Positions 922 through 22,383 of a stretch of 64,000 nt of DNA are shown one piece after another. Source of the stretch: a virus (taxonomy: Duplodnaviria; Heunggongvirae; Uroviricota; Caudoviricetes); IMG/VR virus record IMGVR_UViG_3300028833_000001, positions 127,171 to 191,170 of that record; one strand, 5' to 3'. Each line of letters begins with the position of its first letter. The stretch's first letter is position 1. The position numbers were made by a program, and so were the translations under genes. The notes below the pieces were generated by a model that saw only the letters and a list, made by a program, of their open reading frames with translations, had not been told where the DNA came from and did not search any database.

Positions 922-1051
922 AAACAATTAATATACTATATTATTCATTATAATACATAAATAGTTGCTAATCCACACAATACTCAATTGACAATAGCAC
1001 AATTTTAATTTATATTACAAATACAATAAGATAAAATATAATTAAAATTAT

Positions 1052-3358: not shown

Positions 3359-3772
3359 TTAGTTATTATCGGTTTGTAATCTTTGTGGATGTTCCCTGGG
3401 CCTTTCATTATGGTCATGATTATGTTGAGGTCCTGGTTGAGCATCGGTATTAGTTTCAGGTTCCGCTGCATACTTACCGAATTTATGGGCCTTGTCTATA
3501 TTCCCGCATCCTTGAAGGAGGACGAATATGGCTATGACGAATATAATGATATTCATCAAAGATGAAGTAAATGTAACGGTTGCTGAGACATAGAACAGGC
3601 AAACTGCCACGATAAACAACGACATCGATAATACACTATTTAAAAAATCCTTCATAACTCTATATGTTAACAACAATAAATAGACATTGGATGTGGAAAA
3701 TAAATTGGTGGTTATATACATTTTACTAATATATATGGGAATATTGAAGATATTTAAATTATGACGGCGCAA
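3359..3772 (-). CDS. membrane protein with a His-rich C-terminus
   Basis: 137 aa with two hydrophobic segments and a C-terminal PQHNHDHNERPREHPQ. Confidence 0.45.
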   Translation of the reverse strand: MRRHNLNIFNIPIYISKMYITTNLFSTSNVYLLLLTYRVMKDFLNSVLSMSLFIVAVCLFYVSATVTFTSSLMNIIIFVIAIFVLLQGCGNIDKAHKFGKYAAEPETNTDAQPGPQHNHDHNERPREHPQRLQTDNN

Positions 3773-4622: not shown

Positions 4623-4766
4623 TTAATCAAACGTTTAATCTTATTATTATGCATTATAATAATACAATTAAAATTGACATTAAACAAGGATTATTTGTTT
4701 TTTTTTTTATTAAAATGACAAAAAAAACCAGGAATATTTTTCCTGGCTTTTTTGGACCATGATATA

Positions 4767-5645
4767 TTAGTAAGCAATGGCGGGAGCAATCATTGTTTTA
4801 AGTTTCTCGATAGCACCGTTTCTGAGTTGTCTAACTCGTTCGGATGACAATCCAAGGATTTCGGCAATTTCTTTGTCCTTATACTCCTTATAGTAGTCTC
4901 CGATGCCAGCATACATTTTAATGATTGTAGCTTCACGTTCTGACAGCTCATTCATAGCTGAGGAAAGAATATATGACAGATTATCTTTGTCCATCACATC
5001 CACATAATCGTTATGCGAGGAAGAAACAATTGCAAATTCGGAAGAATCTTCCATAGTGTATTCATCATCATCGGGACTGCAAGAATCGTCAATATACTCA
5101 ATAGAAGCGCCATAGATGTCACCTGAGTTCTTTACATCAATCCCGTATTCTTCATCCAAAATGGCAACAACTTCGGATGCCAAAGGAAGACGATGATGTT
5201 CATTATAGAAGGCTTGTTCAATCTTTTTGATTTTTGGAGACACGCGGGCATTGTTTGTAGGGACAACCATCATATTCTCTTTGTTGAGAAACTGATTAAT
5301 GGAGCGTCTAATATAGTAATCGGCAATAGTAGTGAACCTATACCCCGTGGCAATGTCATAGGCATAGAAGGCTTCAATCGCGCCACAATTAGCCTCGCTG
5401 ATTAAGTCACCGAGAAGGTCATTCGTGGCATATCTTTTTGCGATAGCGAAGATGAATCGCTGATTACCCTCAATGATTTCATTTCTGATTTGGAGTTTTC
5501 TCTCATTGTCTTCACTTGCATTATACTCTTCAAAGAGTTCTTTCTCCCTTTCGGGAGTCATCACTTTGAGTTTATTGAGGTCATGCAGATAAGACTTCAT
5601 AATGTCAGTTCTTTCAATGAAATTCGTTCTTTTCTTAATGTCCAT
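4767..5645 (-). CDS. sigma-70 family RNA polymerase sigma factor with regions 2, 3 and 4
   Basis: Region 2: FIFAIAKRYATNDLLGDLISEANCGAIEAFYAYDIATGYRFTTIADYYIRRSI. Region 4 HTH: IAEILGLSSERVRQLRNGAIEKLK. The sigma-54-type motif lies 44 nt upstream. Confidence 0.85.
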   Translation of the reverse strand: MDIKKRTNFIERTDIMKSYLHDLNKLKVMTPEREKELFEEYNASEDNERKLQIRNEIIEGNQRFIFAIAKRYATNDLLGDLISEANCGAIEAFYAYDIATGYRFTTIADYYIRRSINQFLNKENMMVVPTNNARVSPKIKKIEQAFYNEHHRLPLASEVVAILDEEYGIDVKNSGDIYGASIEYIDDSCSPDDDEYTMEDSSEFAIVSSSHNDYVDVMDKDNLSYILSSAMNELSEREATIIKMYAGIGDYYKEYKDKEIAEILGLSSERVRQLRNGAIEKLKTMIAPAIAY

Positions 5646-5688
5646 ATTCTTCCTAATTTTTGTTTATAAAATATTTTTGGTACATATT

Positions 5689-5705
5689 AGCAAATACCGT
5701 GCCAA
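5689..5705 (-). promoter_or_regulatory. sigma-54-type -24/-12 promoter motif
   Basis: Minus-strand TTGGCACGGTATTTGCT, 44 nt upstream of the sigma-factor ATG at 5645. Confidence 0.5.
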
Positions 5706-5799
5706 AATTTACATTACGCCATAAACCAAAAAAAAACGCTATTAATTTGTAATTAACAATATAATAGCGCTCTACGAAAAAATAAATTAAAATTTGTCA

Positions 5800-9001: not shown

Positions 9002-9018
9002 TGCAATTATCGTGCCAA
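9002..9018 (-). promoter_or_regulatory. sigma-54-type -24/-12 promoter motif
   Basis: TTGGCACGATAATTGCA, 34 nt upstream of the ATG at 8968. Confidence 0.5.
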
Positions 9019-9021
9019 AAA

Positions 9022-9720
9022 TTAAAACCTACACCATAAGAGACCTTGCACAATTCCATCTTCTGCACCGATGATATATTGAGGTTTATTGATTTTCATA
9101 AAAGAAGCCACAATGTTTTGATAGCGACAAAATTCCAAATCATTATCTCTCAAATCACTAACATCTTTGAGACCCAAGACATCAACATACAGATAACCTT
9201 TAACTTCAACGCAGGATGGATTCTCCAAAGTTTCAAGGTCAATTGGTTCACCGAATAGTTTGTCTATATCCAAAAGGTCGTTATAGGTTAAATCCATTTG
9301 TGATTTCAGTCCATTCTTGGTTGCAAATTTCACAATTTCTTTATAGTTATCAATATTCTCATTGAAATCATTGTAACGTGACGAAACAATTTCCCAAATG
9401 TCACACACATCGTCAAAAATCAATCTATAACTCGCCACTCTATCCTCATTTTCAACCTCAACATAAAATTCGTTATCATCTTTGAAGGTTTTGATTTGCT
9501 TTACTTCTTCACACATTGACGAGGCATATTCAACGTGATTACCGCCATCGTATGCGATATATAAACCATCGTCATACCGCTTGGTTGTGAGATTGATTGT
9601 ACCACCCATTTCTTTAATCATTGTGACAATATCTGAAACAATGTCACATCTCAATGCTAATGTTTTGGAATGATATTCCTCTAAACGAGACTTAATGTCT
9701 TTGTTATTGATTGCCGCCAT
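9022..9720 (-). CDS. hypothetical protein, paralog of 11557..11901 in its C-terminal domain
   Basis: LENPSCVEV...IIGAEDGIVQGLLWCRF compares with LENPTCITT...LIGAENGICKGIMYCVW. Confidence 0.5.
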   Translation of the reverse strand: MAAINNKDIKSRLEEYHSKTLALRCDIVSDIVTMIKEMGGTINLTTKRYDDGLYIAYDGGNHVEYASSMCEEVKQIKTFKDDNEFYVEVENEDRVASYRLIFDDVCDIWEIVSSRYNDFNENIDNYKEIVKFATKNGLKSQMDLTYNDLLDIDKLFGEPIDLETLENPSCVEVKGYLYVDVLGLKDVSDLRDNDLEFCRYQNIVASFMKINKPQYIIGAEDGIVQGLLWCRF

Positions 9721-9777
9721 AATTCTTAATTTTAATTTTATATAAAAATAAAAAGTGTTGTGTTATGTGACATTTTG

Positions 9778-10074
9778 TCAGTTACACCTTGCCAATCTAA
9801 TGACACTATCTTCATAGACGTCAATGATTTCCCAATCCTCATTGTTCATCGTGTCACGCAGAACTGTGTCGGTGGAGATTAGATAGAAGAATATCACTTC
9901 ATCAAAGGTATTGTCACCTGCCAATTTGTCATATTCTTCTTCCGTGCAATAACACATTGTGACACGTTCAGTCTTTCCGTTGTCCTTGAATTTGATTTCA
10001 CAATCAAATGTGAAAGGTGTTGTCGGGGAAGAGATAAGGACATCAGCTAATTTGGTTAAAATTTCTCTATTCAT
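9778..10074 (-). CDS. hypothetical acidic protein
   Basis: 98-aa ORF. Confidence 0.4.
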   Translation of the reverse strand: MNREILTKLADVLISSPTTPFTFDCEIKFKDNGKTERVTMCYCTEEEYDKLAGDNTFDEVIFFYLISTDTVLRDTMNNEDWEIIDVYEDSVIRLARCN

Positions 10075-10086
10075 TGTTTATGGGGT

Positions 10087-10626
10087 TTATTGGTGATTAA
10101 AATTGATGATTTCCTGCGTGTAATCTTCGGCAATTTTGGAAAGTTTGAAATAATCTTCCCACACGTCATCCTCAAAGCTTAACCCATTTACTACACAAGT
10201 TTTGCAGTATTGGGTATCAATGTATTTGACGTGAATGTACTCATCGTGTGTTTCAATTTTGATATTGATGGAATAGCCTTCATTATTGGCTTTATCAACG
10301 ATATTGGCAATTTCATCGCAATCATAAAAACATACATAGTCATTATCGCCAAACAATTCGATTGAGCGCATAAACTCGGTAAATTCTTCGCACGGCATAT
10401 CGCACAATTTTTGAAGAGCATCAACCTGCTCTTCGTTTTTCTGATTGGCAGGTTTTTCTTCACCAACATATTTGAATGACGCACTATAATACTCTCCAAC
10501 GCAGTTTATCTCATCAGCTAATCCATCATAAATAACGTCAAGCGACCCATTATCAATTAGACGTTCTGTATCCGCCAAAGCCTCAGTTACGCGATAATCT
10601 TCCGCTTGAATTTCAACTTTAATCAT
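10087..10626 (-). CDS. hypothetical acidic protein
   Basis: 179-aa ORF with the promoter motif upstream. Confidence 0.5.
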   Translation of the reverse strand: MIKVEIQAEDYRVTEALADTERLIDNGSLDVIYDGLADEINCVGEYYSASFKYVGEEKPANQKNEEQVDALQKLCDMPCEEFTEFMRSIELFGDNDYVCFYDCDEIANIVDKANNEGYSINIKIETHDEYIHVKYIDTQYCKTCVVNGLSFEDDVWEDYFKLSKIAEDYTQEIINFNHQ

Positions 10627-10671
10627 AATTCTAAATTTTAATTGTTACTATTAATTTGTCATTAATCTATA

Positions 10672-10688
10672 TGCAATTATCGTGCCAA
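10672..10688 (-). promoter_or_regulatory. sigma-54-type -24/-12 promoter motif
   Basis: TTGGCACGATAATTGCA, 46 nt upstream of the ATG at 10626. Confidence 0.5.
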
Positions 10689-10691
10689 ACC

Positions 10692-11462
10692 TCACTCTTC
10701 ATACGAAATCACACGAGGCAGTCCGTTCCTTGAAAGATTCTCATAAATTTGAGTTTCATCGGGATTTATATCCTCCGCAAGTGTCAACGCTTCTTCTTCT
10801 GTATGCGCCTCCACGACAAATTCTTCTGTTGTGGTATATTCAACTTTGATTGTGTATTTCTTTTTGGGGGTTTCCAACTCTTCGAAATACTCATTAACTT
10901 CTTCCCGCGACATTTCCGTAAACCACGGCTCAATCTCCTTGTAATTGGTAGGGATGGTATCGGAGACCTCAATCAAATCACCTTTCCACGTTCCAACCAT
11001 TTCCATAAGTGTACCATTGTAGTCTCCACCACCACAACCATTTCCATCAGCAGTAAGAATTGGAAGAGGATGAGCAATTCCGCCCCAACCTTTCATATCG
11101 GGAATTGTCTGCTTTTTGAGGTCAAACCATTCCTTTTTGTCGTGATTGATATAGATGGTATTGTCATCAAGCGCGCGCTTCACAATAGAGATTTCGATTT
11201 CATCTAATGGGTCAACTTTTTCCGCCTTATAGGTCAAATCATAGTAATTATCATTACCGATAACGGCATCGCCATAATCACCTGCCCAAACAAGTCTTTT
11301 AGGGCATTCAATCATTTTGTAGGTAACATTCATCACGAACTTATTACCAATATACGAATGCTCCATTAATTTAGAACCATTATTTGTGTCCCAAGAATCA
11401 AAATATTCTTTTACATTGTCTTTTTTTTCTGTGATGAAACACGCTTTATAATATTGTCCCAT
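10692..11462 (-). CDS. hypothetical protein
   Basis: 256-aa ORF with the promoter motif upstream. Confidence 0.5.
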   Translation of the reverse strand: MGQYYKACFITEKKDNVKEYFDSWDTNNGSKLMEHSYIGNKFVMNVTYKMIECPKRLVWAGDYGDAVIGNDNYYDLTYKAEKVDPLDEIEISIVKRALDDNTIYINHDKKEWFDLKKQTIPDMKGWGGIAHPLPILTADGNGCGGGDYNGTLMEMVGTWKGDLIEVSDTIPTNYKEIEPWFTEMSREEVNEYFEELETPKKKYTIKVEYTTTEEFVVEAHTEEEALTLAEDINPDETQIYENLSRNGLPRVISYEE

Positions 11463-11538
11463 AATTTTAATTTAATTTGTTAATACTAATTTTAATTGTT
11501 TTTAATGAAAGTTGGGTACGCAAACGCGTACCCTATAT

Positions 11539-11555
11539 ACGCAATAATCGTGCCA
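11539..11555 (-). promoter_or_regulatory. sigma-54-type promoter motif followed by the palindromic hairpin
   Basis: TTGGCACGATTATTGCG, with the palindrome GGGTACGCGTTTGCGTACCC immediately downstream (11513-11532). Lies 77 nt upstream of the ATG at 11462. Confidence 0.45.
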
Positions 11556-11556
11556 A

Positions 11557-11901
11557 TTATGCTGACCAAACGCAATACATAATTCCTTTGCAGATTCCGT
11601 TTTCAGCACCAATTAGAAAATCGGGATGGGAAATAGCACCAAGACCAAGAACAATGTCAGAGTATTCGTAACGCTCATCGTAGGTCAATGGAGAGACATA
11701 TTGCGGCAACTCAACAATAATGTATTGGTCTGTTGTGATGCAGGTTGGGTTTTCAAGTGTGTAGCAATCTATGGCTTCGTAACCAATGTCAAATATGAAA
11801 TCAACTTCTTTCCATTCGGAAGATGTTTCGGTTTTGAGATTATTTTTTTCGCAGAAGGCAATGATTTTGTCTTTTACTTCTTGGAATTTTTCACTTGTCA
11901 T
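11557..11901 (-). CDS. hypothetical protein, paralog of the 9022..9720 C-terminal domain
   Basis: Shared C-terminal motif. The start was set to an internal Met to avoid overlap with 11921..12280. Confidence 0.4.
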   Translation of the reverse strand: MTSEKFQEVKDKIIAFCEKNNLKTETSSEWKEVDFIFDIGYEAIDCYTLENPTCITTDQYIIVELPQYVSPLTYDERYEYSDIVLGLGAISHPDFLIGAENGICKGIMYCVWSA

Positions 11902-11920
11902 ATTGTCTATGGATTTAAGG

Positions 11921-12280
11921 TTAGTAAGCGTATTCGGGGATTTTTTCAACGTAATTGTCAATGACTTCTTGAATGTTGTCGCAATAGCATTCATCAACGC
12001 GGTGTTTTAGGTTTCCGTGTGTGGAGACAAACTCCACCTCATAGTAATCCATATAGTTATAAATGACGTGGACGTACCCTTTGAATTTCATACCATTGAC
12101 CTTGAAACGAAGGCAGGGATTGCCTTTTTCGGTCACGGCATACACAAATCCGTGCGCTCCCCAAGACCAATAAACGTGGACATTTGGGTATTTGATTTGG
12201 CTCATAATCGTTGAGGTGATAGTCTTTGCGTCCTCAACTTGACGCTTGGTCTTCGGTGCTACTAACTTGGTTGCTTCCAT
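11921..12280 (-). CDS. hypothetical protein
   Basis: 119-aa ORF with the promoter motif 42 nt upstream. Confidence 0.5.
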   Translation of the reverse strand: MEATKLVAPKTKRQVEDAKTITSTIMSQIKYPNVHVYWSWGAHGFVYAVTEKGNPCLRFKVNGMKFKGYVHVIYNYMDYYEVEFVSTHGNLKHRVDECYCDNIQEVIDNYVEKIPEYAY

Positions 12281-12321
12281 TTCAATAAATTTTAATCGGT
12301 GAATAAATACGTTGTGCTATA

Positions 12322-12338
12322 TGCAAAAAGTGTGCCAA
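12322..12338 (-). promoter_or_regulatory. sigma-54-type -24/-12 promoter motif
   Basis: TTGGCACACTTTTTGCA, preceded by the upstream GTTGTGCTATA element. Confidence 0.5.
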
Positions 12339-12339
12339 A

Positions 12340-12702
12340 CTATTTCACAATAATCATTTCCTCAACGAACTCTAATCCATCAAGTTCTGCGTGTGCAACA
12401 TCGTATGTTTCACCACTATTATAGCTGCAAACTTCAAATCTTAATGTGCCGTCTTGGTCAATGTAAGCACGTTCCAAAGCCACTTCTTCAACCTCATCAA
12501 ATGCGGTGCAGATAACTCTCGGATAAAAGCAACCGTCTTTATCGTTAAAGACATATTCCTTATTAGGCAGGTTTTCAATTTTCGCCACAATATCTTCGCA
12601 GGTCATAGTGTGTGCAGCCACTTTCAAATCAATTGCAGAAATATTGTTCTCTCTTACGAACTTCACAATGGCATCGTTGCTCATTAAAATATCGGTTGTC
12701 AT
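12340..12702 (-). CDS. hypothetical acidic protein
   Basis: 120-aa ORF. Confidence 0.5.
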   Translation of the reverse strand: MTTDILMSNDAIVKFVRENNISAIDLKVAAHTMTCEDIVAKIENLPNKEYVFNDKDGCFYPRVICTAFDEVEEVALERAYIDQDGTLRFEVCSYNSGETYDVAHAELDGLEFVEEMIIVK

Positions 12703-12751
12703 AATCTATAAATTTTAATTGTGAATACTAAATTTGTTTGTACAGCATATA

Positions 12752-12768
12752 TACAAATACCGTGCCAA
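12752..12768 (-). promoter_or_regulatory. sigma-54-type -24/-12 promoter motif
   Basis: TTGGCACGGTATTTGTA, 50 nt upstream of the ATG at 12702. Confidence 0.45.
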
Positions 12769-12844
12769 ACTTATTATATATGGTTTTTATTGATATGACA
12801 TAATGGCACGACAAAATGGCAGACTGACATTTTGGCATATAAAA

Positions 12845-13040
12845 AAATAAAGGGTGTGACGGAGTATACTCTCCTACTCATTTTAAGTGTGACGGAGTAT
12901 ACTCTCCTATCCATTTTACACACATTTAATCCAATGTTCAGCCCTTTTCGGAGCGACCCGCTCCTTACTGCCCCTATGTCCTATGCTATTATGGCGGTTT
13001 CATTGCTGATGATTTAAGTTAGACAATCAGTTTACAATTC
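12845..13040 (-). ncRNA. candidate small non-coding RNA downstream of a perfect-consensus promoter; contains a 2 x 33-bp tandem repeat and a GGAGCG..CGCTCC hairpin, and ends in a T7 run
   Basis: There is no minus-strand ORF of 60 aa or more between the promoter at 13047-13063 and the next promoter at 12752. The repeats GTGTGACGGAGTATACTCTCCTA(C/T)(T/C)CATTTTA lie at 12854-12886 and 12887-12918. Confidence 0.35.
12854..12918. repeat. 33-bp direct tandem repeat, 2 copies, each with an internal GGAG..CTCC hairpin
   Basis: Seen directly in the sequence. Confidence 0.8.
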
Positions 13041-13046
13041 TCTATA

Positions 13047-13063
13047 TGCAAAAAGCGTGCCAA
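13047..13063 (-). promoter_or_regulatory. sigma-54-type promoter motif (perfect consensus) with no protein gene downstream
   Basis: TTGGCACGCTTTTTGCA, part of a ~65-bp cassette repeated at 13955-14030 and 18940-19015. Confidence 0.5.
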
Positions 13064-13107
13064 ACCCATATTAGGAATGGCACGCTGACAACAATTAAAA
13101 TTAAGAT

Positions 13108-13923
13108 TTATTCTTCATACGGGCATTCAGTATCATCCTGCACATTAACGCAGGTGTCAAAACAAACACCATTGGTTTCACCTCTCTTGAATTTATTGAT
13201 TGCCTCTTCAATGGCGGCATCATCATCTCCATCTGCATCAATAACAACTCTTGTTGTCAGTTCAAATGTGACAAGTTTGGCAGTCTTTGGTGACTTTTTG
13301 TCAAAGGTGATGATTGTAGGCTTGTTTTCCTTTTCACACATATCTATTGTGGCATATAACTTGCCGAGGCTATCTTCATAATCACTTCCCTTATACATTT
13401 TAATCTTGTTATCAATGAGGTCAAATTTGAATTTCCAATGAATCTCATATCGTTTTGTCTGTGTGCCATCCCAATAATAACTGATTGGCTTCAAACGGAA
13501 ATGAGTGGTGTTGACATAACTATTAACACGTACATACTCAAACTCCAATGTAGTGCAAGAATGGGTAAAATTCAAATCATCATAGGATATATCGGCAATA
13601 CAACCGATATTAAGTATGTTTTCATTATATCCGTGTATAAACAATGAATATTCTTCATCGTTTCTTAATGCGAGGTTTAATGTCTTATATAGACCACCTT
13701 TGTATTCATTTAAGAGTTTGTATGACGATACCTCGCCAATGCCAGCGATTTCAAGCATAAAACAAATTCCACAACCACGAACATAATCTAATTTTCTTGT
13801 TGATTTGTTAAAGTAAAAATAGCAAGGTCTTTCGTTGAGTTCAACAATTCTTGCTTCACGGACTTCTCTGCCGTTCTCACCTTTGATGTTTGCGTAAAGA
13901 ATAATGTCATTGATGTTTGTCAT
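13108..13923 (-). CDS. hypothetical protein
   Basis: 271-aa ORF. Confidence 0.55.
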   Translation of the reverse strand: MTNINDIILYANIKGENGREVREARIVELNERPCYFYFNKSTRKLDYVRGCGICFMLEIAGIGEVSSYKLLNEYKGGLYKTLNLALRNDEEYSLFIHGYNENILNIGCIADISYDDLNFTHSCTTLEFEYVRVNSYVNTTHFRLKPISYYWDGTQTKRYEIHWKFKFDLIDNKIKMYKGSDYEDSLGKLYATIDMCEKENKPTIITFDKKSPKTAKLVTFELTTRVVIDADGDDDAAIEEAINKFKRGETNGVCFDTCVNVQDDTECPYEE

Positions 13924-13969
13924 ACTTTTTGAATTTTAATTGTAAATATTAATTTGTCACTACCATATA

Positions 13970-13986
13970 TACAAAAAGCGTGCCAA
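13970..13986 (-). promoter_or_regulatory. sigma-54-type -24/-12 promoter motif
   Basis: TTGGCACGCTTTTTGTA, 47 nt upstream of the ATG at 13923. Confidence 0.5.
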
Positions 13987-14027
13987 ACTTATTATGAGTG
14001 ACACGCTGACAACAATTAAAATTAAGA

Positions 14028-14885
14028 TTATTCAATGTATCTCACCTCAACCTTTCCTTCCCAAATGTCATCACCATCCCTCTTATCGTAAATCGTGTAC
14101 TTGGTTGAATTTGAATCTGCGGTTGACATTTCAAATATTTCATCTTCGTCATAAAAAAGGCTAAAAAGGTTATCCACTTTTTTCTTTTCCTCAATCAAGG
14201 CGTCAGAGGCATCGTCATATTCTTCAAAGAGACGAAATGCAAATTCGGGAGAAAAATGCCCTCCGCCATACCACTTTGATGAAAATGCCCAAACCTTTTT
14301 ATGGTTGAACAACGGTTCGTTAGGGTTGTCAATGTTGTACTTGATTTGGTATTGGATAATCATTTCACCGTTGATAATCTTTGCCAAGTGGCAAAGACCA
14401 ACTTTATCGTAAAGATAGGCTACCACTTTTTGTAACTGCTCACAAGAAAGTCTAACACCACTTGTTAGTTTTTTTGCCGCTACAAATGCCATTGTTCTGT
14501 GGAGTTTATGGTTTATAAACTTTTCAATCTCATTGTAATCGTCAATATTCGGGTATTCTTCCGTGTTATACTCACTCACAATGTCATAGATAATGTCATA
14601 GTAAAGGCTTGCCTCAACCACATTTTCGCAGTAGTGTTCAACAATCTTGTGCGCAATAAAATCGTGCAAACTCATCTCAACCTCATCAATTGTGGCTTCG
14701 CATACGTTTTGAATGTAGCACCCATAATCGTTCTCATCAACAACGAAGTCAATAGTGCTTGATGACCCAATTGCATCATCAACTTTCCCTTTCATATAGA
14801 TTTGTGCCAATTTCATCGTTGGATGTACCTCAACCTGCTTTTCGCTGTTTTTCAAATTCGTGAAAGTCAATACATAAATTTTCAT
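14028..14885 (-). CDS. hypothetical protein; its C-terminus resembles that of 19864..20760
   Basis: ...DIWEGKVEVRYIE compares with ...DVWEGRIRKIYVQE. Confidence 0.55.
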   Translation of the reverse strand: MKIYVLTFTNLKNSEKQVEVHPTMKLAQIYMKGKVDDAIGSSSTIDFVVDENDYGCYIQNVCEATIDEVEMSLHDFIAHKIVEHYCENVVEASLYYDIIYDIVSEYNTEEYPNIDDYNEIEKFINHKLHRTMAFVAAKKLTSGVRLSCEQLQKVVAYLYDKVGLCHLAKIINGEMIIQYQIKYNIDNPNEPLFNHKKVWAFSSKWYGGGHFSPEFAFRLFEEYDDASDALIEEKKKVDNLFSLFYDEDEIFEMSTADSNSTKYTIYDKRDGDDIWEGKVEVRYIE

Positions 14886-14932
14886 AATCTATAAATTTTA
14901 ATTTGTAAATAATGAATTAACGTGTTGTGTTA

Positions 14933-14949
14933 TGCAAATAATGTGCCAA
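14933..14949 (-). promoter_or_regulatory. sigma-54-type -24/-12 promoter motif
   Basis: TTGGCACATTATTTGCA, 48 nt upstream of the ATG at 14885. Confidence 0.5.
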
Positions 14950-14952
14950 ATT

Positions 14953-15531
14953 TTAATTCAACCGTGCGACAAGTTTTCCACAATACATCATCACATCACC
15001 ATAGTGGATTTTTTCATCATCGGGCAAGCCACGATACTCTCTGATAGCATCTACCATAGCCTCATCTTTGACAACCTCAGCCATTTTCGGATAAGTCAAA
15101 ATAATAGTGGATGGGTCTGTTTTTTCAAGTGCGTAAGCAAGAGCAGCACCATCGGCACACTCAACAGTATATTCGTGTTCTTCATCATCACCGAAAAAAT
15201 CATTATCGCAGAACATCACACTGTCTTCGCGGACAACACCACTTGCACATTGGTCTGACACAATGTCAGAATTGTCATCATCTGCCAAATTGTCATCATC
15301 ATAGGTTTCCTCAATAAAGTCGGCTGTTGCTTCTCCAAACTGAAATTCTCCGTTAGGGATTTCAACATATTCGGGAAATTCCGATAATGTTTCACAATTC
15401 AGTGCTTCATCTGCCTTGCACAAAGCGTCATACTCACTATCAGCCTTGACGTTCATATACCCATTATAAACGCAGGAGAGGCTTACACGATAGGTCTTTT
15501 GGCTCTTCTTGGTTTCGTTCTTTTTTGCCAT
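14953..15531 (-). CDS. hypothetical acidic protein
   Basis: 192-aa ORF. Confidence 0.5.
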   Translation of the reverse strand: MAKKNETKKSQKTYRVSLSCVYNGYMNVKADSEYDALCKADEALNCETLSEFPEYVEIPNGEFQFGEATADFIEETYDDDNLADDDNSDIVSDQCASGVVREDSVMFCDNDFFGDDEEHEYTVECADGAALAYALEKTDPSTIILTYPKMAEVVKDEAMVDAIREYRGLPDDEKIHYGDVMMYCGKLVARLN

Positions 15532-15564
15532 AATTCTAAAATTTTAATTGTTCACTATACTCTA

Positions 15565-15581
15565 TGCAAATACTATGCCAA
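15565..15581 (-). promoter_or_regulatory. sigma-54-type promoter motif (GC to AT variant at -24: TGGCAT)
   Basis: TTGGCATAGTATTTGCA, 34 nt upstream of the ATG at 15531. Confidence 0.4.
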
Positions 15582-15615
15582 AATTGCAAGATAGCCTTTC
15601 TCTCGGTGCTTATCT

Positions 15616-15882
15616 TTAATTATTTTCAATGTATTCTTTAACCATTTCAATTGCATCATCCAAATTTCGGGCATTTCCGATGGCTTCGTTCTCAATGCTT
15701 GGTTTTGATGAGTAATTGTCTGGCTCAATCACTACCGAACAATATTTATCATCACGGAGTATCACGTTTCCGTATGCAACACATAATTTGTTCCACGCAG
15801 TTACATATACCTTTAACGTGTATATATTGCCGTTTCTTTCAATGCTGATTGGTAAGGATTCAATGCTATTCATATTATTCAC
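15616..15882 (-). CDS. hypothetical protein
   Basis: 88-aa ORF. Confidence 0.4.
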   Translation of the reverse strand: MNNMNSIESLPISIERNGNIYTLKVYVTAWNKLCVAYGNVILRDDKYCSVVIEPDNYSSKPSIENEAIGNARNLDDAIEMVKEYIENN

Positions 15883-15923
15883 AAATCATTTTAATTTTTT
15901 TTTGTCGGTTTTTAAGTTATTAA

Positions 15924-16214
15924 TTATTCTTCATCCCAATTTGGCTCTTCCTCATAGGCATAGGTGCAAAGGTACATAACCTTTTTCGGTATTGTAATCG
16001 TTCTATCATCTCCTATGTCCATTTGTTCCCAAGATACGATATAAACAACCGATATAGAGAGAATTTCAACATTCTCCCCAAGTCTTTGTTTGAAATTCCA
16101 TACAATAGGGTTTTTAACCGCCTCGTTGCCGTAATTTCTGCGGATTTCTTCTTCGTTATGGACATAATAGTCCATCATACACATATCAGTTGCGACTTTC
16201 TTTATGTTTGCCAT
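15924..16214 (-). CDS. hypothetical protein
   Basis: 96-aa ORF. Confidence 0.4.
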   Translation of the reverse strand: MANIKKVATDMCMMDYYVHNEEEIRRNYGNEAVKNPIVWNFKQRLGENVEILSISVVYIVSWEQMDIGDDRTITIPKKVMYLCTYAYEEEPNWDEE

Positions 16215-16224
16215 AATTCTAATT

Positions 16225-16431
16225 TTAATTGTTGATAATATGTGGATATATGAAATTGTTTAAGATTAACCAATCACTTCCGCTATTCGCCAACTCACAA
16301 AATTCTTGCAATGTGAATATGTCACAATACTTTTCATTTGCTAATTCATATCTTTCATTAGATGACATTTTATCCAATTCTTCACGCTCAAAATCATCAG
16401 CACAAAATAATAAAATAATCGTTTTTTCCAT
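16225..16431 (-). CDS. hypothetical acidic protein
   Basis: 68-aa ORF. Confidence 0.35.
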   Translation of the reverse strand: MEKTIILLFCADDFEREELDKMSSNERYELANEKYCDIFTLQEFCELANSGSDWLILNNFIYPHIINN

Positions 16432-16445
16432 ATTTATCCTAAATT

Positions 16446-16865
16446 TTAATAGTTAAACAATTTCAAGGCACAATCCAATTCGTTTTTTTCATTGTTTAAT
16501 ATCAATAATTTGTTTCTCACCTCATTGTAACGTTTTGTTAATTCTTTTTTTATTGCTTTAATCCTGCCATCCTTATATTCATCTTCTTCTTCTTCCAATC
16601 TAACCCAAAAATATCTATTGCATTGGTCAACAATTGAGTATGCTTGCAATTCAAATGTATGTTTGCCGTTCTCCATAGGGTATTCATACAATTTAGCATT
16701 ATCAATATCATAATCTTCGGAATTAATTTTAGTAAAGCAAAGATAATGTTTGATGATTGCGTTAGAACTATTGTCGTTGGCAAGATTGATATTGTATTTG
16801 TTCAATATCTCCAAATCCCAATCAACCCTTTTATTAAACTCTTGTATAAAATTTTCTATTGTCAT
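16446..16865 (-). CDS. hypothetical protein
   Basis: 139-aa ORF with a degenerate motif at 16882-16900. Confidence 0.45.
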   Translation of the reverse strand: MTIENFIQEFNKRVDWDLEILNKYNINLANDNSSNAIIKHYLCFTKINSEDYDIDNAKLYEYPMENGKHTFELQAYSIVDQCNRYFWVRLEEEEDEYKDGRIKAIKKELTKRYNEVRNKLLILNNEKNELDCALKLFNY

Positions 16866-16898
16866 AATTCTAATTATTATATTTCCCCTATATACAAA

Positions 16899-17233
16899 TC
16901 ACCAAATTTTACGAAATTTTGTTGTCCGTATTCTGCGTCCTACACCATAGTTTTCGTTGTGTACTCTTTCATCTTTGCAGATATAGACATCGCCAACAAG
17001 AATGGGATGCCCGAAACGAGGTACATATTCATTGTTCATCAACGATTCTTTGATATGAGGAAACAATTTATAAAAGTTTCCCCATACATTTTTGTTTCGT
17101 TTCAACGATGGCACTCTTATATTATATCCACAACTACAAGGTGTTCCGCTTGTGTTGTAGTAATCTTTGTTGTCCCGTCCTTTCTTTTCGTTATAAAAGA
17201 CAGTAGGATATTTTGCTCTTATTTTCTTTTTCA
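16899..17233 (-). CDS. hypothetical basic protein
   Basis: The track ORF starts with TTG inside the promoter motif, so the start was reset to the first ATG (VMKKKIRAKYP...). Confidence 0.4.
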
Positions 17234-17261
17234 TCACTTCAATTTTTATTCGTTTGCTATT

Positions 17262-17278
17262 ATACAAAAACTATGCCA
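17262..17278 (-). promoter_or_regulatory. sigma-54-type promoter motif (TGGCAT variant)
   Basis: TTGGCATAGTTTTTGTA, ~29 nt upstream of the ATG at 17233. Confidence 0.4.
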
Positions 17279-17555
17279 AAAGTTCCCTCAATGCCGAAAT
17301 AGTTTCATTGAATACTGATATTTTCTCTTCGTCAGTCATTCGGCAAAATGTCTTACCGAATTTGTATTTTGGATTATTATCCATTTGTTCAAGGCAAAGG
17401 TAATAAATAAATGGCGGATATTCACGCTCATTCTTACTCTTCAAAACCTCATCAAGCTCATTCTCCGCCAATGATATTGCCTTGTTGAAACAATCCTCGT
17501 CATTATCCAAATGATAGTTACGGACTAAATGAAATAAACTATTTTCGTTTACCAT
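17271..17555 (-). CDS. hypothetical protein
   Basis: 94-aa ORF. Confidence 0.4.
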   Translation of the reverse strand: MVNENSLFHLVRNYHLDNDEDCFNKAISLAENELDEVLKSKNEREYPPFIYYLCLEQMDNNPKYKFGKTFCRMTDEEKISVFNETISALRELLA

Positions 17556-17556
17556 A

Positions 17557-17787
17557 TTATTTCAGTTTTTCCAATATTTCTTCAATTCTTACACAATCTT
17601 TCGCATCAGCCAACCCATATTTATCCAACCTGCGAAATTCAATCTCATCACCATTGCAGATGTCGGCAACATAATCAACACCCAACGCTTGCGACACCTT
17701 TGAAGATAAAGATTGCATTGCAAGTTCAAGTTCGTTGCTCTTCTGCAAACACTTGGCATACGCTTTATTTATTTCACTCTTTGTCAA
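17557..17787 (-). CDS. hypothetical protein
   Basis: 76-aa ORF. Confidence 0.4.
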   Translation of the reverse strand: MTKSEINKAYAKCLQKSNELELAMQSLSSKVSQALGVDYVADICNGDEIEFRRLDKYGLADAKDCVRIEEILEKLK

Positions 17788-17796
17788 TGTGTTGTG

Positions 17797-18177
17797 TTAT
17801 TTTGTTGTGTACATATCCTCGGTGGCTTCCAATGCAAGCCCCATAGGAATTAAACCATAGTAATCAAAGTGATTGGAATTTAACCAATGTACCCAATTCA
17901 CTGCGTTTCGGTAATTGAAAATAGAGTTGGAATTGATAAATTTGTCATATTCGTATCTCTCCTCCATAGTCATAGATGACATTGGTCGTAGGTAGGGTTT
18001 AACATCAGTTAAATATACGGAATAGCAATCATCGGTTCTAAAAGAAATATTTGGGACTATACTTAAAATGCCTTGAATTGTTTGTGGTGTGTCGTGCCCT
18101 TTTACAAAAATTTTTACCCCATAAGGCAACATTGCACAAATGACTTGTAGTAACAATTCTTTTTCTTCTTGTGTCAT
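17797..18177 (-). CDS. hypothetical protein
   Basis: 126-aa ORF. Confidence 0.45.
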   Translation of the reverse strand: MTQEEKELLLQVICAMLPYGVKIFVKGHDTPQTIQGILSIVPNISFRTDDCYSVYLTDVKPYLRPMSSMTMEERYEYDKFINSNSIFNYRNAVNWVHWLNSNHFDYYGLIPMGLALEATEDMYTTK

Positions 18178-18220
18178 AATAATCTAAATTTTAATTAACG
18201 TTTGTTTTGAATTTTAATTA

Positions 18221-18478
18221 TTACAAATTATCCTCATCAGTTTCATTGTAGTCAGCGAGGCATCGTTCAATTGAAATATGAGCATCGCCAAAGCATATTT
18301 CATCATCCTTAAACGTTTCCCAATCGGTGATTGCCGTTTCTTTTATGTCCTCCACAACGTCATACAAATAATCTTTCGCAATGGTTTTTGCCTCTTCGTT
18401 GTCACATCCGAGACTTGTTTCGGCAAAGAAAAAAATCTCATCTTTTACCAATTCAATTTGTCTTTTTGTCAGTTCCAT
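18221..18478 (-). CDS. small hyper-acidic protein
   Basis: 85 aa with more than 30% D/E. Confidence 0.45.
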   Translation of the reverse strand: MELTKRQIELVKDEIFFFAETSLGCDNEEAKTIAKDYLYDVVEDIKETAITDWETFKDDEICFGDAHISIERCLADYNETDEDNL

Positions 18479-18496
18479 ATCATTTGTGTTTTTGGT

Positions 18497-18922
18497 TTAC
18501 AAATATTGCAGGATGGTGATGATTGCCTCACGCTTTTGGTCCTCATCATAAATCAAAATCTCCTCCGCATCCTTATCTGTGTATGGATTTCCGCTCCAAA
18601 AATAGATGTCAGCTCCGTTAGTAGTAACATTGGTAATTGTCGCTCCGTTGCATTTGATACCAAAATCTTCAACTGACAAATTGTCAGTATCAAACTCATC
18701 GAATTGGTCTCTCAATTCACATTCCAAGTTGAAAAGGCTTCGTTCATCGTCCCAAATTTCCATCAAGTCATCTCTTGTCTCCGCATCCTCAACGGAGCAG
18801 AGTTCAACAAAATCAAATTCAGCAGGGATGTTCATCATCTCAAATTTGCTTTTTATTTCAGCAATGGAGTCACCACTAAATTTCTTTGCCACTCTAAAAG
18901 TTACGATTGCTTGTTTTTCCAT
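18497..18922 (-). CDS. hypothetical acidic protein
   Basis: 141-aa ORF with the promoter motif 35 nt upstream. Confidence 0.5.
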   Translation of the reverse strand: MEKQAIVTFRVAKKFSGDSIAEIKSKFEMMNIPAEFDFVELCSVEDAETRDDLMEIWDDERSLFNLECELRDQFDEFDTDNLSVEDFGIKCNGATITNVTTNGADIYFWSGNPYTDKDAEEILIYDEDQKREAIITILQYL

Positions 18923-18956
18923 ACCATAAATTTTAATTGGTTAGACGCACCATATA

Positions 18957-18973
18957 TACAAAAAGCGTGCCAA
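18957..18973 (-). promoter_or_regulatory. sigma-54-type -24/-12 promoter motif within a repeated cassette
   Basis: TTGGCACGCTTTTTGTA. The flanking AATTGGTTAGACGC and CACGCTGACAACAATTAAAATTAAGATT are shared with other copies. Confidence 0.5.
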
Positions 18974-19013
18974 ACTTATAAAGCAGGCACGCTGACAACA
19001 ATTAAAATTAAGA

Positions 19014-19418
19014 TTATGATAAATTGATAGTATCTAAATCAATATTACAAATGTAGTCAAAATCTTCAAACCAATCCGATTTATGGTTGTAAACGGTCGG
19101 GTGCGTGTATGGTTTCATATCATCATTTAAGTAACAATATTGATAATAGTAACATTTGCCGTCTCTTGATGGTTTGGAATCAAGTATTGCTATATAATAT
19201 TGGTAATTTCGTAATGGTTCAAATGGATTGTTCGTATCACTAATATTGAAGCATCCATAAACTCCACCAATCTTCAATTGGTCTTTGTTATCATTTTTTT
19301 TCTTCTTGTCATTTATGTTTTCAACAATACATTCAATTGATTTGAATATGAAGAAAGAGAAAACAAGAACGACAAAATTGTAAATGATAAACGATAGTAA
19401 TGTAGTAAACGTAATCAT
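19014..19418 (-). CDS. membrane-anchored protein, tandem paralog of 19430..19852
   Basis: N-terminal TM helix, then IGGVYG...YYIAILDSKPSRDGKCYYYQY...DIDLDTINLS. Confidence 0.5.
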   Translation of the reverse strand: MITFTTLLSFIIYNFVVLVFSFFIFKSIECIVENINDKKKKNDNKDQLKIGGVYGCFNISDTNNPFEPLRNYQYYIAILDSKPSRDGKCYYYQYCYLNDDMKPYTHPTVYNHKSDWFEDFDYICNIDLDTINLS

Positions 19419-19429
19419 AAGTTTTTTGA

Positions 19430-19852
19430 TTATGAAACTTTTATGCTATTCAAGTCAATATCCTTTACATATTCCCAATTATCAAAATAATTTGTTTGAT
19501 TACTATAAATCATAGTGTCACTATAACTGCTATATGGTGACATATTGTCATTTAGAAAGACATATTGGCAGTATTCACAATGTCCATCCCTTGATGGTTT
19601 TATGTCAAGGATTGCCACATAATAACCATAGTCGTGAATAGGGGAAAATGGGTCATTATTATCACCATAAAATCGTCTTTTTCCATATATTCCACCAATA
19701 TTCAATGATGACTTGACTTTTTTCTCTTTTTGTATCTTCTTATTGCTCCTAATATTATCAATGATGTGGCGGAAAAATTTGAAAAATGTGATTGAAAACA
19801 CACTAATGAAGATTGTGAATGAAATAAATGATGGTATATTAAAGGTAATCAT
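19430..19852 (-). CDS. membrane-anchored protein, tandem paralog of 19014..19418
   Basis: IGGIYG...YYVAILDIKPSRDGHCEYCQY...DIDLNSIKVS. The start was set to the internal Met to avoid overlap. Confidence 0.5.
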   Translation of the reverse strand: MITFNIPSFISFTIFISVFSITFFKFFRHIIDNIRSNKKIQKEKKVKSSLNIGGIYGKRRFYGDNNDPFSPIHDYGYYVAILDIKPSRDGHCEYCQYVFLNDNMSPYSSYSDTMIYSNQTNYFDNWEYVKDIDLNSIKVS

Positions 19853-19863
19853 AATTTTAATTT

Positions 19864-20760
19864 TTATTCTTGAACGTAAATCTTTCTTATTCTTCCCTCC
19901 CACACATCAAGACGATAGGAATCCACAAAACTTACTTGGTATACGTCATCGGAACACCGATATGTGACGTTTTCGCCAACGTATTGACTATTGAATGCCT
20001 CAACGGCTTCTTCATATTTTTTCTTCATCGCAGCGGCAGCGGAAGCGTGAGACTTATAAACAGTTGTATCCTCTTCAAGACCAAATCTACTGCCATCCTC
20101 CCAAACCGATGTTGCGACATAGACATAATCTAAATTGAATACCACTTTACGTTGTTCCCTATTGATTTCACCCTTAACATCCTCAATGGCATCTTCTTCA
20201 CCATTGATTACAGCAAGAATTAATGACAATCCACGATTGTCCTTCAAATAATCGGCAACGATTTGGAAATATTTGTTTTGGAAATCATTGTCATAACCGC
20301 TAACAATTTTTGCTGCGGCACGTTTTGCAAACCTTTCCCTCAATTCGGTATCAACGAAATGCTCAATTTCTTCATCATAGAACGGCAAATCATTTTCGGT
20401 GTAACATAATAGTTCATACATAATCAGTTCACGATGCTCTTCGCAAGCACCCGAAAACATCATCACCTTATCAATGATTCTCTCCACTTGCATTTGGTAG
20501 GTGTCCATTGATGTTTGTTTGATTTCATACTCAACCCTATTACCATCGGAAATGGTGGCATAATCATTACCTTTCCAAACATCATACCCGTTGAAAACGA
20601 AATGCTCGCCTTTGCTTGCAAGTATATCTTTTTTAATTTTAATTTCACTTGCAACTTCTGCGAACATAACTTCTTGTGCTTGCGTAAAAGTTGGGAATGA
20701 CCAAACAAGCGTATCGTTATGCAGTTGAGTTCTGATGACATTAAAAATTTTAATCTTCAT
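19864..20760 (-). CDS. hypothetical protein
   Basis: 298-aa ORF with the promoter motif 52 nt upstream. Confidence 0.55.
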   Translation of the reverse strand: MKIKIFNVIRTQLHNDTLVWSFPTFTQAQEVMFAEVASEIKIKKDILASKGEHFVFNGYDVWKGNDYATISDGNRVEYEIKQTSMDTYQMQVERIIDKVMMFSGACEEHRELIMYELLCYTENDLPFYDEEIEHFVDTELRERFAKRAAAKIVSGYDNDFQNKYFQIVADYLKDNRGLSLILAVINGEEDAIEDVKGEINREQRKVVFNLDYVYVATSVWEDGSRFGLEEDTTVYKSHASAAAAMKKKYEEAVEAFNSQYVGENVTYRCSDDVYQVSFVDSYRLDVWEGRIRKIYVQE

Positions 20761-20811
20761 AATCTTATATTTTTAATTGTTGATGATTTGAATTACTTGT
20801 GTTGTGCTATA

Positions 20812-20828
20812 TGCAATTATTGTGCCAA
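20812..20828 (-). promoter_or_regulatory. sigma-54-type -24/-12 promoter motif
   Basis: TTGGCACAATAATTGCA with the upstream GTTGTGCTATA element. Confidence 0.5.
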
Positions 20829-20829
20829 A

Positions 20830-21057
20830 TTAAAAATAGTAACTCACCTCATCCTCATTAAAAGATGTTCCGTTTTCGTTGTTGTAGTCTTCAATTGCAA
20901 GTGATGGGATGTAGGATTCACCTGCAAGTTCAAACTTGCCATTCTTAATGAGTTCCTCCAAAACTGAATTGTCATCGGCAGATAACAATTTTTTGATTGT
21001 ATCTTCATCTGCCTTTATGTCAACACCTACTCTCATCCAAATTTTTTGTTCTTGCAT
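20830..21057 (-). CDS. hypothetical acidic protein
   Basis: 75-aa ORF. Confidence 0.4.
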   Translation of the reverse strand: MQEQKIWMRVGVDIKADEDTIKKLLSADDNSVLEELIKNGKFELAGESYIPSLAIEDYNNENGTSFNEDEVSYYF

Positions 21058-21104
21058 AATACTGAATTTTAATTGTGAATATTAATTTTAAGTGTTGTGC
21101 TATA

Positions 21105-21121
21105 TGCAATTATTGTGCCAA
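21105..21121 (-). promoter_or_regulatory. sigma-54-type -24/-12 promoter motif
   Basis: TTGGCACAATAATTGCA, 48 nt upstream of the ATG at 21057. Confidence 0.5.
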
Positions 21122-21271
21122 CTTACCTGCGCCTCCAATATAATTTTCCGATGAGGTGTTTTCTATTTGATGGCTCAATGATAAACCATTTCCACCATTC
21201 AAGTCTTCCGATATTGATATACTCCCCTACAATCAGTTGAGGGCGGCTCGCCATAGCGATTATGTCATCCA

Positions 21272-21481
21272 TTATTCGTTACCACCATTAAGTTCAAGGT
21301 AAATGTCAGTACACATATCGTCAAAATTGGTTGTGCCGTCATTATAATCATCAAGGACTTCAATGATGGTTTCGTAGTCGCTATCAGCGTCAAGGTTGTC
21401 GGAAATGAGGTTGTTAATTCTAACAATGTCATCTTCACCCAATTCAAGGGCGAATGAATAATCTCTAATAATTTCTTCCAT
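21272..21481 (-). CDS. small hyper-acidic protein
   Basis: 69 aa, extremely D/E-rich. Confidence 0.4.
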   Translation of the reverse strand: MEEIIRDYSFALELGEDDIVRINNLISDNLDADSDYETIIEVLDDYNDGTTNFDDMCTDIYLELNGGNE

Positions 21482-21494
21482 AATGTTATTAATT

Positions 21495-21728
21495 TTAATT
21501 AAACAAATTCATAAATCTACTTTCAAAATCTCTTAAAGTATCTTCGGCAAAATCATCCCACCAATCTTCGCGCTGGCAAGCGCGCAAATATGTAATATTT
21601 GCAACAATATTATTATACTCTTCACAAAACCGTTTTTTCTCCACATTTCGTTTTAAGTTAATGGTTGCCAATGTAATGAAGAAAATTACAATCAATGATA
21701 AGATGATGATTAAAATTATAATTGTCAT
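21495..21728 (-). CDS. small membrane protein
   Basis: N-terminal TM helix. Confidence 0.4.
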   Translation of the reverse strand: MTIIILIIILSLIVIFFITLATINLKRNVEKKRFCEEYNNIVANITYLRACQREDWWDDFAEDTLRDFESRFMNLFN

Positions 21729-22379: not shown

Positions 22380-22383
22380 AATT

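Follow-up and report, generated by a model that had tools for sequence, protein, structure and literature searches.

Phage sigma cascades are a textbook model of temporal gene control. In the Bacillus subtilis phage SPO1, the early gene 28 is transcribed with host sigma-A, and its product gp28 redirects the core RNA polymerase to middle promoters. Late transcription of phage T4 is carried out with gp55, gp33 and gp45 at TATAAATA, and T4-like phages use a gp55-type factor at late promoters that consist of a -10 element only. To our knowledge, the first step of every phage sigma cascade studied so far depends on the host primary sigma factor or on a phage polymerase. In Bacteroidota the primary sigma factor is a short sigma-A without region 1.1, and its promoters carry TTTG at -33 and TAnnTTTG at -7. 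Sigma-54 differs in mechanism, as the closed complex formed with it is locked until it is remodelled by an ATPase. Here, a stretch of 64,000 nucleotides from a virus of the Caudoviricetes (positions 127,171 to 191,170 of IMG/VR record IMGVR_UViG_3300028833_000001; termed the window) was analysed, in which the gene of a sigma-70-family factor of 292 amino acids (4767..5645, stop included, minus strand) lies behind a sigma-54-type -24/-12 element, at the downstream end of an array of such elements. Together with flanks of about 16 kb, the DNA examined covers about 80 kb of the roughly 361 kb of the phage genome. The arrangement is best explained by a cascade leading from host sigma-54 to the phage sigma factor, to which we give about an even chance of being correct.

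The promoter candidate of the sigma gene, TGGCACGGTATTTGCT (5689..5704, read from 5704 to 5689 on the minus strand), matches TGGCACG-N4-TTGCT exactly. It is separated from the A of the sigma ATG by 43 nt, or by 44 nt if counted from the C of TTGC, in agreement with the distance of 44 nt given in the sequence-only reading. At every defining position it agrees with the sigma-54 consensus TGGCAC-N5-TTGC and its GG-N10-GC spacing, and the flanking preferences agree as well (T-T before GG, G after CAC, A/T after GC). The consensus was reportedly given as YTGGCACG-N4-TTGCW by Barrios et al. in 1999. The label "sigma-54-type" is accurate for the sequence; the full consensus is matched, spacing included. 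A consensus of TGGCAC-N5-7-TTGCT can be found in the literature (PMC12316311). If the element is a sigma-54 promoter, transcription of the sigma gene would start near 5678, with a leader of about 33 nt.

The window was searched for further copies. The strict pattern, with at most one mismatch, gave 8 matches, all on the minus strand (0.20 expected), and TGGCAC-N5-TTGC with at most one mismatch gave 19 (2.73 expected), 18 of them on the minus strand between 5690 and 25121. The looser pattern TGGCAY-N5-TTG[CTA] yielded 19 co-oriented copies on the minus strand from 5.7 to 25.1 kb. Variation of the spacer left these 19 minus-strand matches with N5, and 0 to 2 matches with any other spacer from N2 to N9. 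The number of motif copies is not due to chance. The 18 copies other than that of the sigma gene (9003..25121, minus strand, pattern search with fixed N5 spacer) have their first bases at 25121, 24683, 23883, 23221, 22065, 21120, 20827, 18972, 17278, 15580, 14948, 13985, 13062, 12767, 12337, 11555, 10687 and 9017. Beyond the search pattern, TT before TGG and ATATA after TTGC are conserved among the 19 array copies; G follows CAC in 12 of them, and T at +8 is present in all. Every copy lies on the gene strand upstream of an ATG, mostly at 34-52 nt (range 10-78, where 10 belongs to the copy at 23221 with its gene as called).

No copy was found ahead of any gene in 25.2-64 kb. The motif marks one class of genes, made up of small open reading frames (ORFs) of unknown function, a tRNA-Gly(TCC) gene (6967-7038, minus strand, within the array and with small ORFs on either side) and the sigma gene. 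The latter is the last motif-bearing unit at the downstream end, where the sequence-only reading had placed it. Five promoters have the form TGGCACGCTTTTTGC, and in four of them the element also supplies the 3' arm and U-tract of a hairpin with an upstream GCGTGCC or GCGTGTC. In these four promoters (13062, 13985, 18972 and 22065, minus strand; also in two related loci, L001 and L003) the -24 box doubles as the predicted terminator of the preceding gene. No complementary arm lies upstream of the copy ahead of the sigma gene. A cluster of TGTCA/TGACA repeats (CTGACAA, TTGTCAG; 25122-25218) borders the array on its upstream side and could be a site of regulator binding.

The sigma gene looks like a monocistronic transcription unit of its own. 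Between its promoter and the upstream gene (5800-6285) lies a terminator-like hairpin, CGCTATTA...TAATAGCG (5737-5769), with a run of nine U (5728..5770 in all, minus strand). The RNA of 5705-5800 (minus strand) folded with -18.3 kcal/mol (z = -2.3); the hairpin had been missed by a simple terminator scan because of its long loop. Directly past the sigma stop codon, the scan detected a bidirectional intrinsic terminator, CCAGGAA...TTCCTGG with flanking A/T runs (4721..4753, both strands; fold -18.6 kcal/mol, z = -3.8). The separate motif copy, the hairpin with its U9 run, the terminator downstream and the presence of the motif in five orthologous loci bear out the claim that the sigma gene stands under the repeated motif. 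They argue against transcription by read-through alone, which the sequence-only reading had named as a refuting case.

For comparison, seven distinct orthologous loci (nine places) were used, most of which show the same synteny of a small-gene array, the sigma gene and a DUF3310 gene. The motif was found 28-51 nt before the sigma ATG in five lineages, the sigma proteins of which are 70% (L001), 62% (L003), 51% (L010), 46% (L009) and 44% (L006) identical to that of the window. Their GC contents range from 36 to 44%, with L009 at 44%. All five carry further copies across the array, and L006 and L010 have a second, tandem copy before the sigma gene. Given the density of the motif, chance placement before the sigma gene in all five is very unlikely.

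In a further locus, L005 (ena:ERZ28633636 scaffold_219; locus positions 1-10000), which represents a sister lineage of like synteny, no sigma-54-type motif was found upstream of the sigma gene. At least 11 array genes of this locus, including sigma, are preceded by tTTGAAACATTTT-N12-CCGTATAATATAGT, a promoter of the TTGAAAC/TATAAT type that departs from both the Bacteroidota primary-sigma consensus and the sigma-54 type and that was not enriched in the window. The L005 sigma protein (P0036) shares 56-58% identity with its L009 and L010 counterparts and branches among them in a neighbour-joining tree, with the motif-bearing L006 outside. It retains the region 2.3-2.4 block WYIRRAIN and the region 4.2 helix TSERVRQL. 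As judged from these alignments, the L005 lineage has swapped the promoter type of its array with the recognition residues of sigma unchanged, which argues that the phage sigma is not the reader of the array motif. The most distant sigma-bearing relative, L008 (27% GC, 314-kb contig), has its sigma orthologue in an operon with neither array promoter type; a second, shorter sigma-70-family gene (233 amino acids) and a DnaJ homologue were also observed in this locus (19091-19792 and 5085-6116).

The predicted sigma protein was compared with profile models. Scores above the cut-offs were obtained with Pfam Sigma70_r4 (PF04545; 45.1 vs 24.1 bits, residues 230-283), Sigma70_r2 (PF04542; 24.4 vs 24.0 bits, residues 58-122) and NCBIfam TIGR02937 of the sigma-70 superfamily (81.9 vs 42.9 bits). 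The protein could be aligned end to end with the RpoS, RpoD, RpoH and FliA models, and the respective NCBIfam equivalog or subfamily cut-offs were not reached (best 85-92 bits vs 190-379). In a phmmer comparison, residues 53-283 matched residues 183-409 of Thermus SigA, and residues 10-45 weakly resembled region 1.2. The protein lacks region 1.1 and comprises regions 1.2 and 2, a region 3 that is reduced, an acidic linker (3.2) and region 4. An AlphaFold model built on 19 homologues (mean pLDDT 75.5) shows confident sigma-2 (residues 12-122) and sigma-4 (213-291) domains, a sigma-3 domain of two helices only (132-167), and a disordered acidic linker (178-210). The earlier description as a full-length protein with regions 2, 3 and 4 stands for regions 2 and 4 and applies loosely to region 3, whose Pfam match is below the threshold and misplaced; full-length alignments with RpoD, RpoS and SigA do span this region.

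The start codon at 5645 is backed by a conserved N-terminus, MDxKxxTxFxxRTD, across the 19 homologues, and the motifs DLIxEaNxGxxxA and YIRR are found in region 2. In the alignment of these homologues, E269, R270, R272 and Q273 of the region 4.2 recognition helix are invariant, and the region 2.3-2.4 block is strongly conserved in a family with overall identities of 35-82%. At positions that we take to correspond to Y430, W433, W434, Q437 and T440 in the numbering of E. coli, the phage protein has I, Y, Y, R and N. These positions contact the -12/-11 region in E. coli sigma-70. Since the region 2.3-2.4 residues depart from those of primary sigma factors, an altered -10 specificity is plausible. 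A total of 74 sigma homologues were found in metagenomes, many of them on contigs of 50-384 kb, and the protein groups in a clade of its own among metagenomic proteins. A tblastn search in phages gave matches below 30% identity throughout, and a scan of IMG/VR with the sigma pattern revealed no relative. By its predicted sequence, the protein belongs to the sigma-70 family, outside all named bacterial orthologue groups. Two details of its upstream region (5646-5665) and array context were observed: an AGGAAG Shine-Dalgarno-like core precedes the sigma gene, one of only two among 90 ORFs, and the exact AATTAAAATT element that is common in array genes is absent there.

A second promoter class stands apart from the array of sigma-54-type motifs. 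Its element, aCTATTTAT, occurs 13 times in the window, and 12 of these copies lie 14-52 nt before an ATG. On the plus strand, copies with this placement start at 32513, 33602, 41084, 43129, 44783, 49547, 55191, 57339 and 60080 (span 32513..60087), and an intragenic copy is located at 59205. On the minus strand, copies precede a gene at 1-921 that is truncated at the left window edge (957..964), the gene of a small membrane protein (3676..3683; ATG 3655, MKDFL...) and the gene 51299-51730 (51755..51762). The element is found mostly ahead of genes in 25-64 kb, and further structural genes right of the window are preceded by it as well. In the window and seven related loci together, an ORF start (at least 50 amino acids) follows within 60 nt in 32 of 34 copies, compared with 14.7% for permuted 8-mers. 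All sigma-bearing lineages have the element, L005 and the distant L008 among them, and it precedes the orthologous small membrane-protein gene beside the pair of sigma and DUF3310 genes; motif 3676..3683 and this gene were recovered at the same place in L001, L003, L005, L006, L009 and L010. Besides A/T-rich words, enrichment analysis of intergenic k-mers in the window returned only AATTAAAATT, the sigma-54-type motif, CTATTTAT and the GGGTACGC hairpin, and no third G/C-containing promoter motif was found in these regions. Because it co-occurs with sigma across lineages, aCTATTTAT appears to be the best candidate for a target of the phage sigma.

The window has a GC content of 33.7% and comes from a phage contig with a length of about 361 kb; a sigma protein identical to that of the window, P0001, is on record for a contig of 361,445 bp. 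A T4-type prohead protease (gp21-type) and a Gp23 major capsid protein are encoded immediately right of the window, and the predicted phage is a giant, T4-like one. Products of the window include virion proteins, endolysins, a dUTPase, a UvrD-like helicase, a ClpB/ClpA-like full double-AAA+ protein (51813-54362, minus strand), a homologue of initiation factor IF-1 (46180-46398, minus strand) and an IS605-type TnpB (43143-44369, plus strand). The IF-1 gene is adjoined by that of an AAA protein of 374 amino acids (46400-47524, minus strand). Neither of the two ATPases was retained as a candidate activator of sigma-54: the Sigma54_activat match of the ClpB-like protein reflects generic AAA+ similarity, and the 374-residue protein is of the Rpt/FtsH type.

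The host is likely a member of the Bacteroidota from rumen or gut, because Shine-Dalgarno-like cores are scarce (upstream of only 2 of the 90 window ORFs), the closest cultured relatives of the capsid protein belong to Flavobacterium phages (40% identity) and the sample names of related contigs suggest rumen or gut metagenomes. Host assignment by single genes gave no further resolution, as no close relative of TnpB was found among 185,579 genomes and IF-1, whose homologue here shares 60-69% identity with its bacterial counterparts, is too conserved to tell phyla apart. A megablast search with 22 kb of sequence against 50,697 phage records gave no match, and the Flavobacterium phage immuto showed no sigma-54-type motif within its first 50 kb.

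The likeliest reader of the array motif would be host RNA polymerase with host sigma-54. The same consensus was found in arrays on IMG/VR viral contigs without detected protein similarity to the window: L152 carries 10 co-oriented copies upstream of ATGs within 14 kb of a 222-kb contig, L102 carries 10 copies with a CCGAACCGGTTCGG palindrome ahead of each, and L127 carries 21 copies on both strands within 6.5 kb with few ORFs, an arrangement unlike promoters. Since the consensus recurs on such dissimilar contigs, a universally conserved host factor fits better than phage factors that co-evolve. In the window, the promoter pattern of the Bacteroidota primary sigma gave 4 matches and was not enriched, and a generic sigma-70 -35/-10 pattern gave 23 matches vs 23.3 expected; the sigma-54 type is therefore the only host-like promoter class visible in the window. 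A gene for sigma-54, rpoN, is present in 27 of 27 surveyed genomes of Bacteroidia, including Prevotella ruminicola 23 with seven enhancer-binding proteins (EBPs) (PMC12316311). As a separate observation, arrays of TGGCAY-N5-TTGC are also carried by the IMG/VR loci L134, L137, L118 and L091, for which no protein similarity to the window was detected.

The proposed cascade would run as follows. At least 19 units of the window, mostly small ORFs of unknown function and including the sigma gene, would form a class-I regulon, each behind a sigma-54-type promoter. These promoters would be read by the host sigma-54 holoenzyme, aided by an ATP-dependent activator. The activator would probably act from solution, because the intergenic spacers leave no room for upstream sites; the EBPs FlgR and CtcC, which have no DNA-binding domain, work in this way. 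The phage sigma would be made early, since its gene belongs to the class-I regulon. Through two conserved parts, regions 2.2 and 4, it would then bind the host core enzyme and steer it to another promoter class, for which the -10-only element aCTATTTAT before structural and other later genes is the best candidate. The cascade suggested by the sequence-only reading is thereby partly supported, its first step by the anatomy of the locus and by comparison; the redirection of the core to later promoters we infer, as we do the role of sigma-54 as reader, the activator, the timing, the binding to host core and the assignment of aCTATTTAT to sigma. A broader claim, for which we put the chances slightly below even, is that widespread uncultivated giant T4-like phages of Bacteroidota run their whole early programme, including the sigma gene, from sigma-54-type promoters, and hijack the host sigma-54 holoenzyme via a site-independent activator, either supplied by the phage or a stress-activated EBP of the host.

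Several points weigh against this cascade. No gene for sigma-54 or for an EBP was found in the window, its flanks of about 16 kb or the related loci, and regular-expression searches for GAFTGA, the RpoN box and ESELFG, run on all loci as well as the window in six-frame translation, gave no hit. Sweeps of 88 window ORFs with Pfam and PHROG models likewise gave no sigma-54 or activator gene. No conserved upstream activator site was present within 200 bp of the motifs, where the only recurrent k-mers stem from a duplicated cassette and from the TGTCA repeats. At sigma-54 promoters, an EBP is reported to be needed without exception (PMC4641369). The conserved ATATA after TTGC lies outside the sigma-54 consensus. 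A literature search, in which subscription journals were thinly covered, found no report of a phage with sigma-54-type promoters, so that the prior for phage promoters read by sigma-54 is low. At the second step, no -35 element accompanies aCTATTTAT, although region 4.2 of the sigma protein is invariant, and a gp55-type late factor may read this element instead, since the phage is T4-like and has gp23 and gp21 genes of the T4 type.

The first of the alternatives keeps most of the scheme and changes the reader. The array motif might be read by something other than sigma-54, namely a factor or polymerase specified by the phage, such as a virion-delivered RNA polymerase or the host primary sigma appropriated in a MotA/AsiA-like manner; the likeness to the consensus would then be convergent, and the phage sigma would still be early and act on other promoters. 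This we consider unlikely, while taking it seriously. It would account for the failure to find an EBP, rpoN or an activator site, and the ATATA after TTGC resembles an AT-rich, -10-like element. The L005 promoter is different, equally stereotyped and off the Bacteroidota primary-sigma consensus; its wholesale swap implies that the promoter type of the array is replaceable, as expected if a phage factor specifies it. The 21 two-strand copies of L127, with few ORFs, look more like a protein-binding array. However, convergence on a match at twelve positions with the exact GG-N10-GC spacing is improbable, the consensus recurs on dissimilar viral contigs of different GC content, and the window contains no recognisable gene for a phage RNA polymerase or a MotA/AsiA-like protein.

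A second alternative, for which the case is rather poor, concerns the sigma protein itself. It might be a competitor or decoy that occupies the host core or displaces the primary sigma, leading to host shut-off, and a gp55-type factor encoded elsewhere would read aCTATTTAT. The T4-like nature of the phage, with its Gp23 capsid protein and gp21-type protease, would agree with this, as would the -10-only form of aCTATTTAT, which resembles T4 late promoters in the lack of a -35 box, and the lack of a third G/C-containing intergenic promoter motif. Against it, the residues of the region 4.2 helix and of the region 2.3-2.4 block vary little or not at all in a family of 35-82% identity, and conservation in so divergent a family indicates that DNA recognition is under selection; moreover, no gp55-like PHROG was found among the window proteins, including 28 further proteins that were checked.

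The sequence-only reading had offered as its own alternative that the sigma factor recognises TGGCAC-N5-TTGC itself and so drives both the array and its own gene by positive autoregulation. The sigma is the only recognisable transcription factor in the array, and the changes in region 2.3-2.4 (Y430I, W433Y, W434Y, Q437R and T440N, by the mapping assumed above) would allow an unusual specificity. This option is nevertheless disfavoured and appears very improbable: the nested L005 sigma has the same recognition residues in regions 2.4 and 4.2 together with TTGAAAC/TATAAT-type promoters at its array and its own gene, the elements are about 11 bp apart and do not fit the established spacing of region 4 to region 2 in sigma-70-family holoenzymes, and autoregulation alone would be unable to start expression. 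Finally, expression of the sigma gene solely by read-through from upstream units, with a motif that is not a working promoter, is hardly to be expected, for even if some copies that double as the 3' arm of terminator hairpins might serve another role, the copy before sigma has no such arm, is kept in five diverged lineages (tandemly in two), and is set between a hairpin with U9 upstream and a terminator downstream of the gene.

Several other sequence features of the window were recorded. The element AATTAAAATT is present in 45 copies (3.65 expected), 41 of them within 1-22.4 kb. It stands 8-12 nt before the ATG of nearly every array gene, including genes without promoter motif (examples on the minus strand at 10634-10643, 12711-12720 and 14894-14903), and hardly ever precedes genes in the 25-64 kb part. 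Its role may be that of a class-specific translation signal or of an operator site for a protein or RNA. Copies in both orientations occur in a stretch of about 2 kb without convincing ORF (1412-3358), which is AT-rich, contains many copies of AATTAAAATT and ATTTAAAT, and has a GC-richer core (2540-3180). A tRNA-like sequence with an AT-rich insertion (2466-2548, plus strand) scored 37 bits in an Rfam search limited to a small region, and was not called by ARAGORN.

On the minus strand at 12840-13047, a sigma-54-type promoter is followed by the mini-ORF ATGAAACCGCCATAATAG (MKPP-stop-stop), by some 190 nt of higher GC content in which TAGGAGAGTATACTCCGTCACAC occurs twice, and then by a T-run. 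The Pro-Pro-stop mini-ORF or a remnant of it recurs in L001, L003, L009, L010 and L208. No Rfam match was obtained for 12840-13047; the stretch is a candidate for a small RNA or an arrest-peptide leader. The palindrome GGGTACGC-N4-GCGTACCC was found in about 10 copies (3820-3841, 7840-7859, 11510-11530, 23885-23905, 24685-24705 and others), nearly always intergenic and in many cases immediately ahead of a promoter motif; L006, L010 and L152 contain it as well. It looks like a family of terminator hairpins.

If the proposed cascade is correct, it would be the first from sigma-54 to a sigma-70-family factor in a virus, and the same trick would apparently have arisen on dissimilar viral contigs. 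With some 20 early units and the sigma gene under such promoters, either the activator problem has been solved anew or another factor reads a perfect -24/-12 element. Either outcome would bear on the enhancer-free firing of sigma-54 and on host takeover by phages of Bacteroidota, whose transcription is poorly known. More surprising still is the background to the sigma gene, namely whole arrays of sigma-54-type promoters in phage genomes. For the large family of phage sigma factors, a testable prediction of specificity arises from the same sigma being combined with swapped early promoters and a conserved aCTATTTAT.

Compared with known systems, the arrangement would be a variant of the phage sigma cascade with a sigma-54-type first step, of which no description in a phage was found in the literature. 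The phage protein resembles the sigma-A of Bacteroidota in size (292 amino acids), in the presence of region 1.2 and absence of region 1.1, and in the conserved region 4.2. It differs in scoring far below the RpoD equivalog cut-offs and in its changed region 2.3-2.4 residues, and the corresponding primary-sigma promoter pattern is not enriched in the window. With T4 it shares the type of capsid and protease and the placement of structural genes behind a -10-only, A/T-rich 8-mer without -35 box. However, written in transcriptional orientation the element is CTATTTAT, almost the T4 box in reverse complement, and the sigma is a full-length protein with region 4, unlike gp55, of which no homologue was found in the DNA examined. 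The array elements resemble sigma-54 promoters of the glnAp2, nifH and pspA type in TGGCAC-N5-TTGC, GG-N10-GC, flanks and co-oriented upstream placement. Unlike the bacterial promoters, they are concentrated in about 19 copies within 20 kb of phage genome with very short intergenic spacers, show no detectable upstream activator sites and no EBP in the DNA examined, carry an extra conserved ATATA downstream, and in several cases overlap the terminator of the preceding gene. The closest likeness in logic is to SPO1, where a phage sigma-70-family factor also belongs to an early, host-read class, a separate later class follows, and each class has its stereotyped promoter. The two differ in that the early class of SPO1 has a primary-sigma -35/-10 promoter whereas a -24/-12 element is found here, and in that the present sigma factor, known from its sequence, is a full-length protein like those of groups 1 and 2, with region 1.2.

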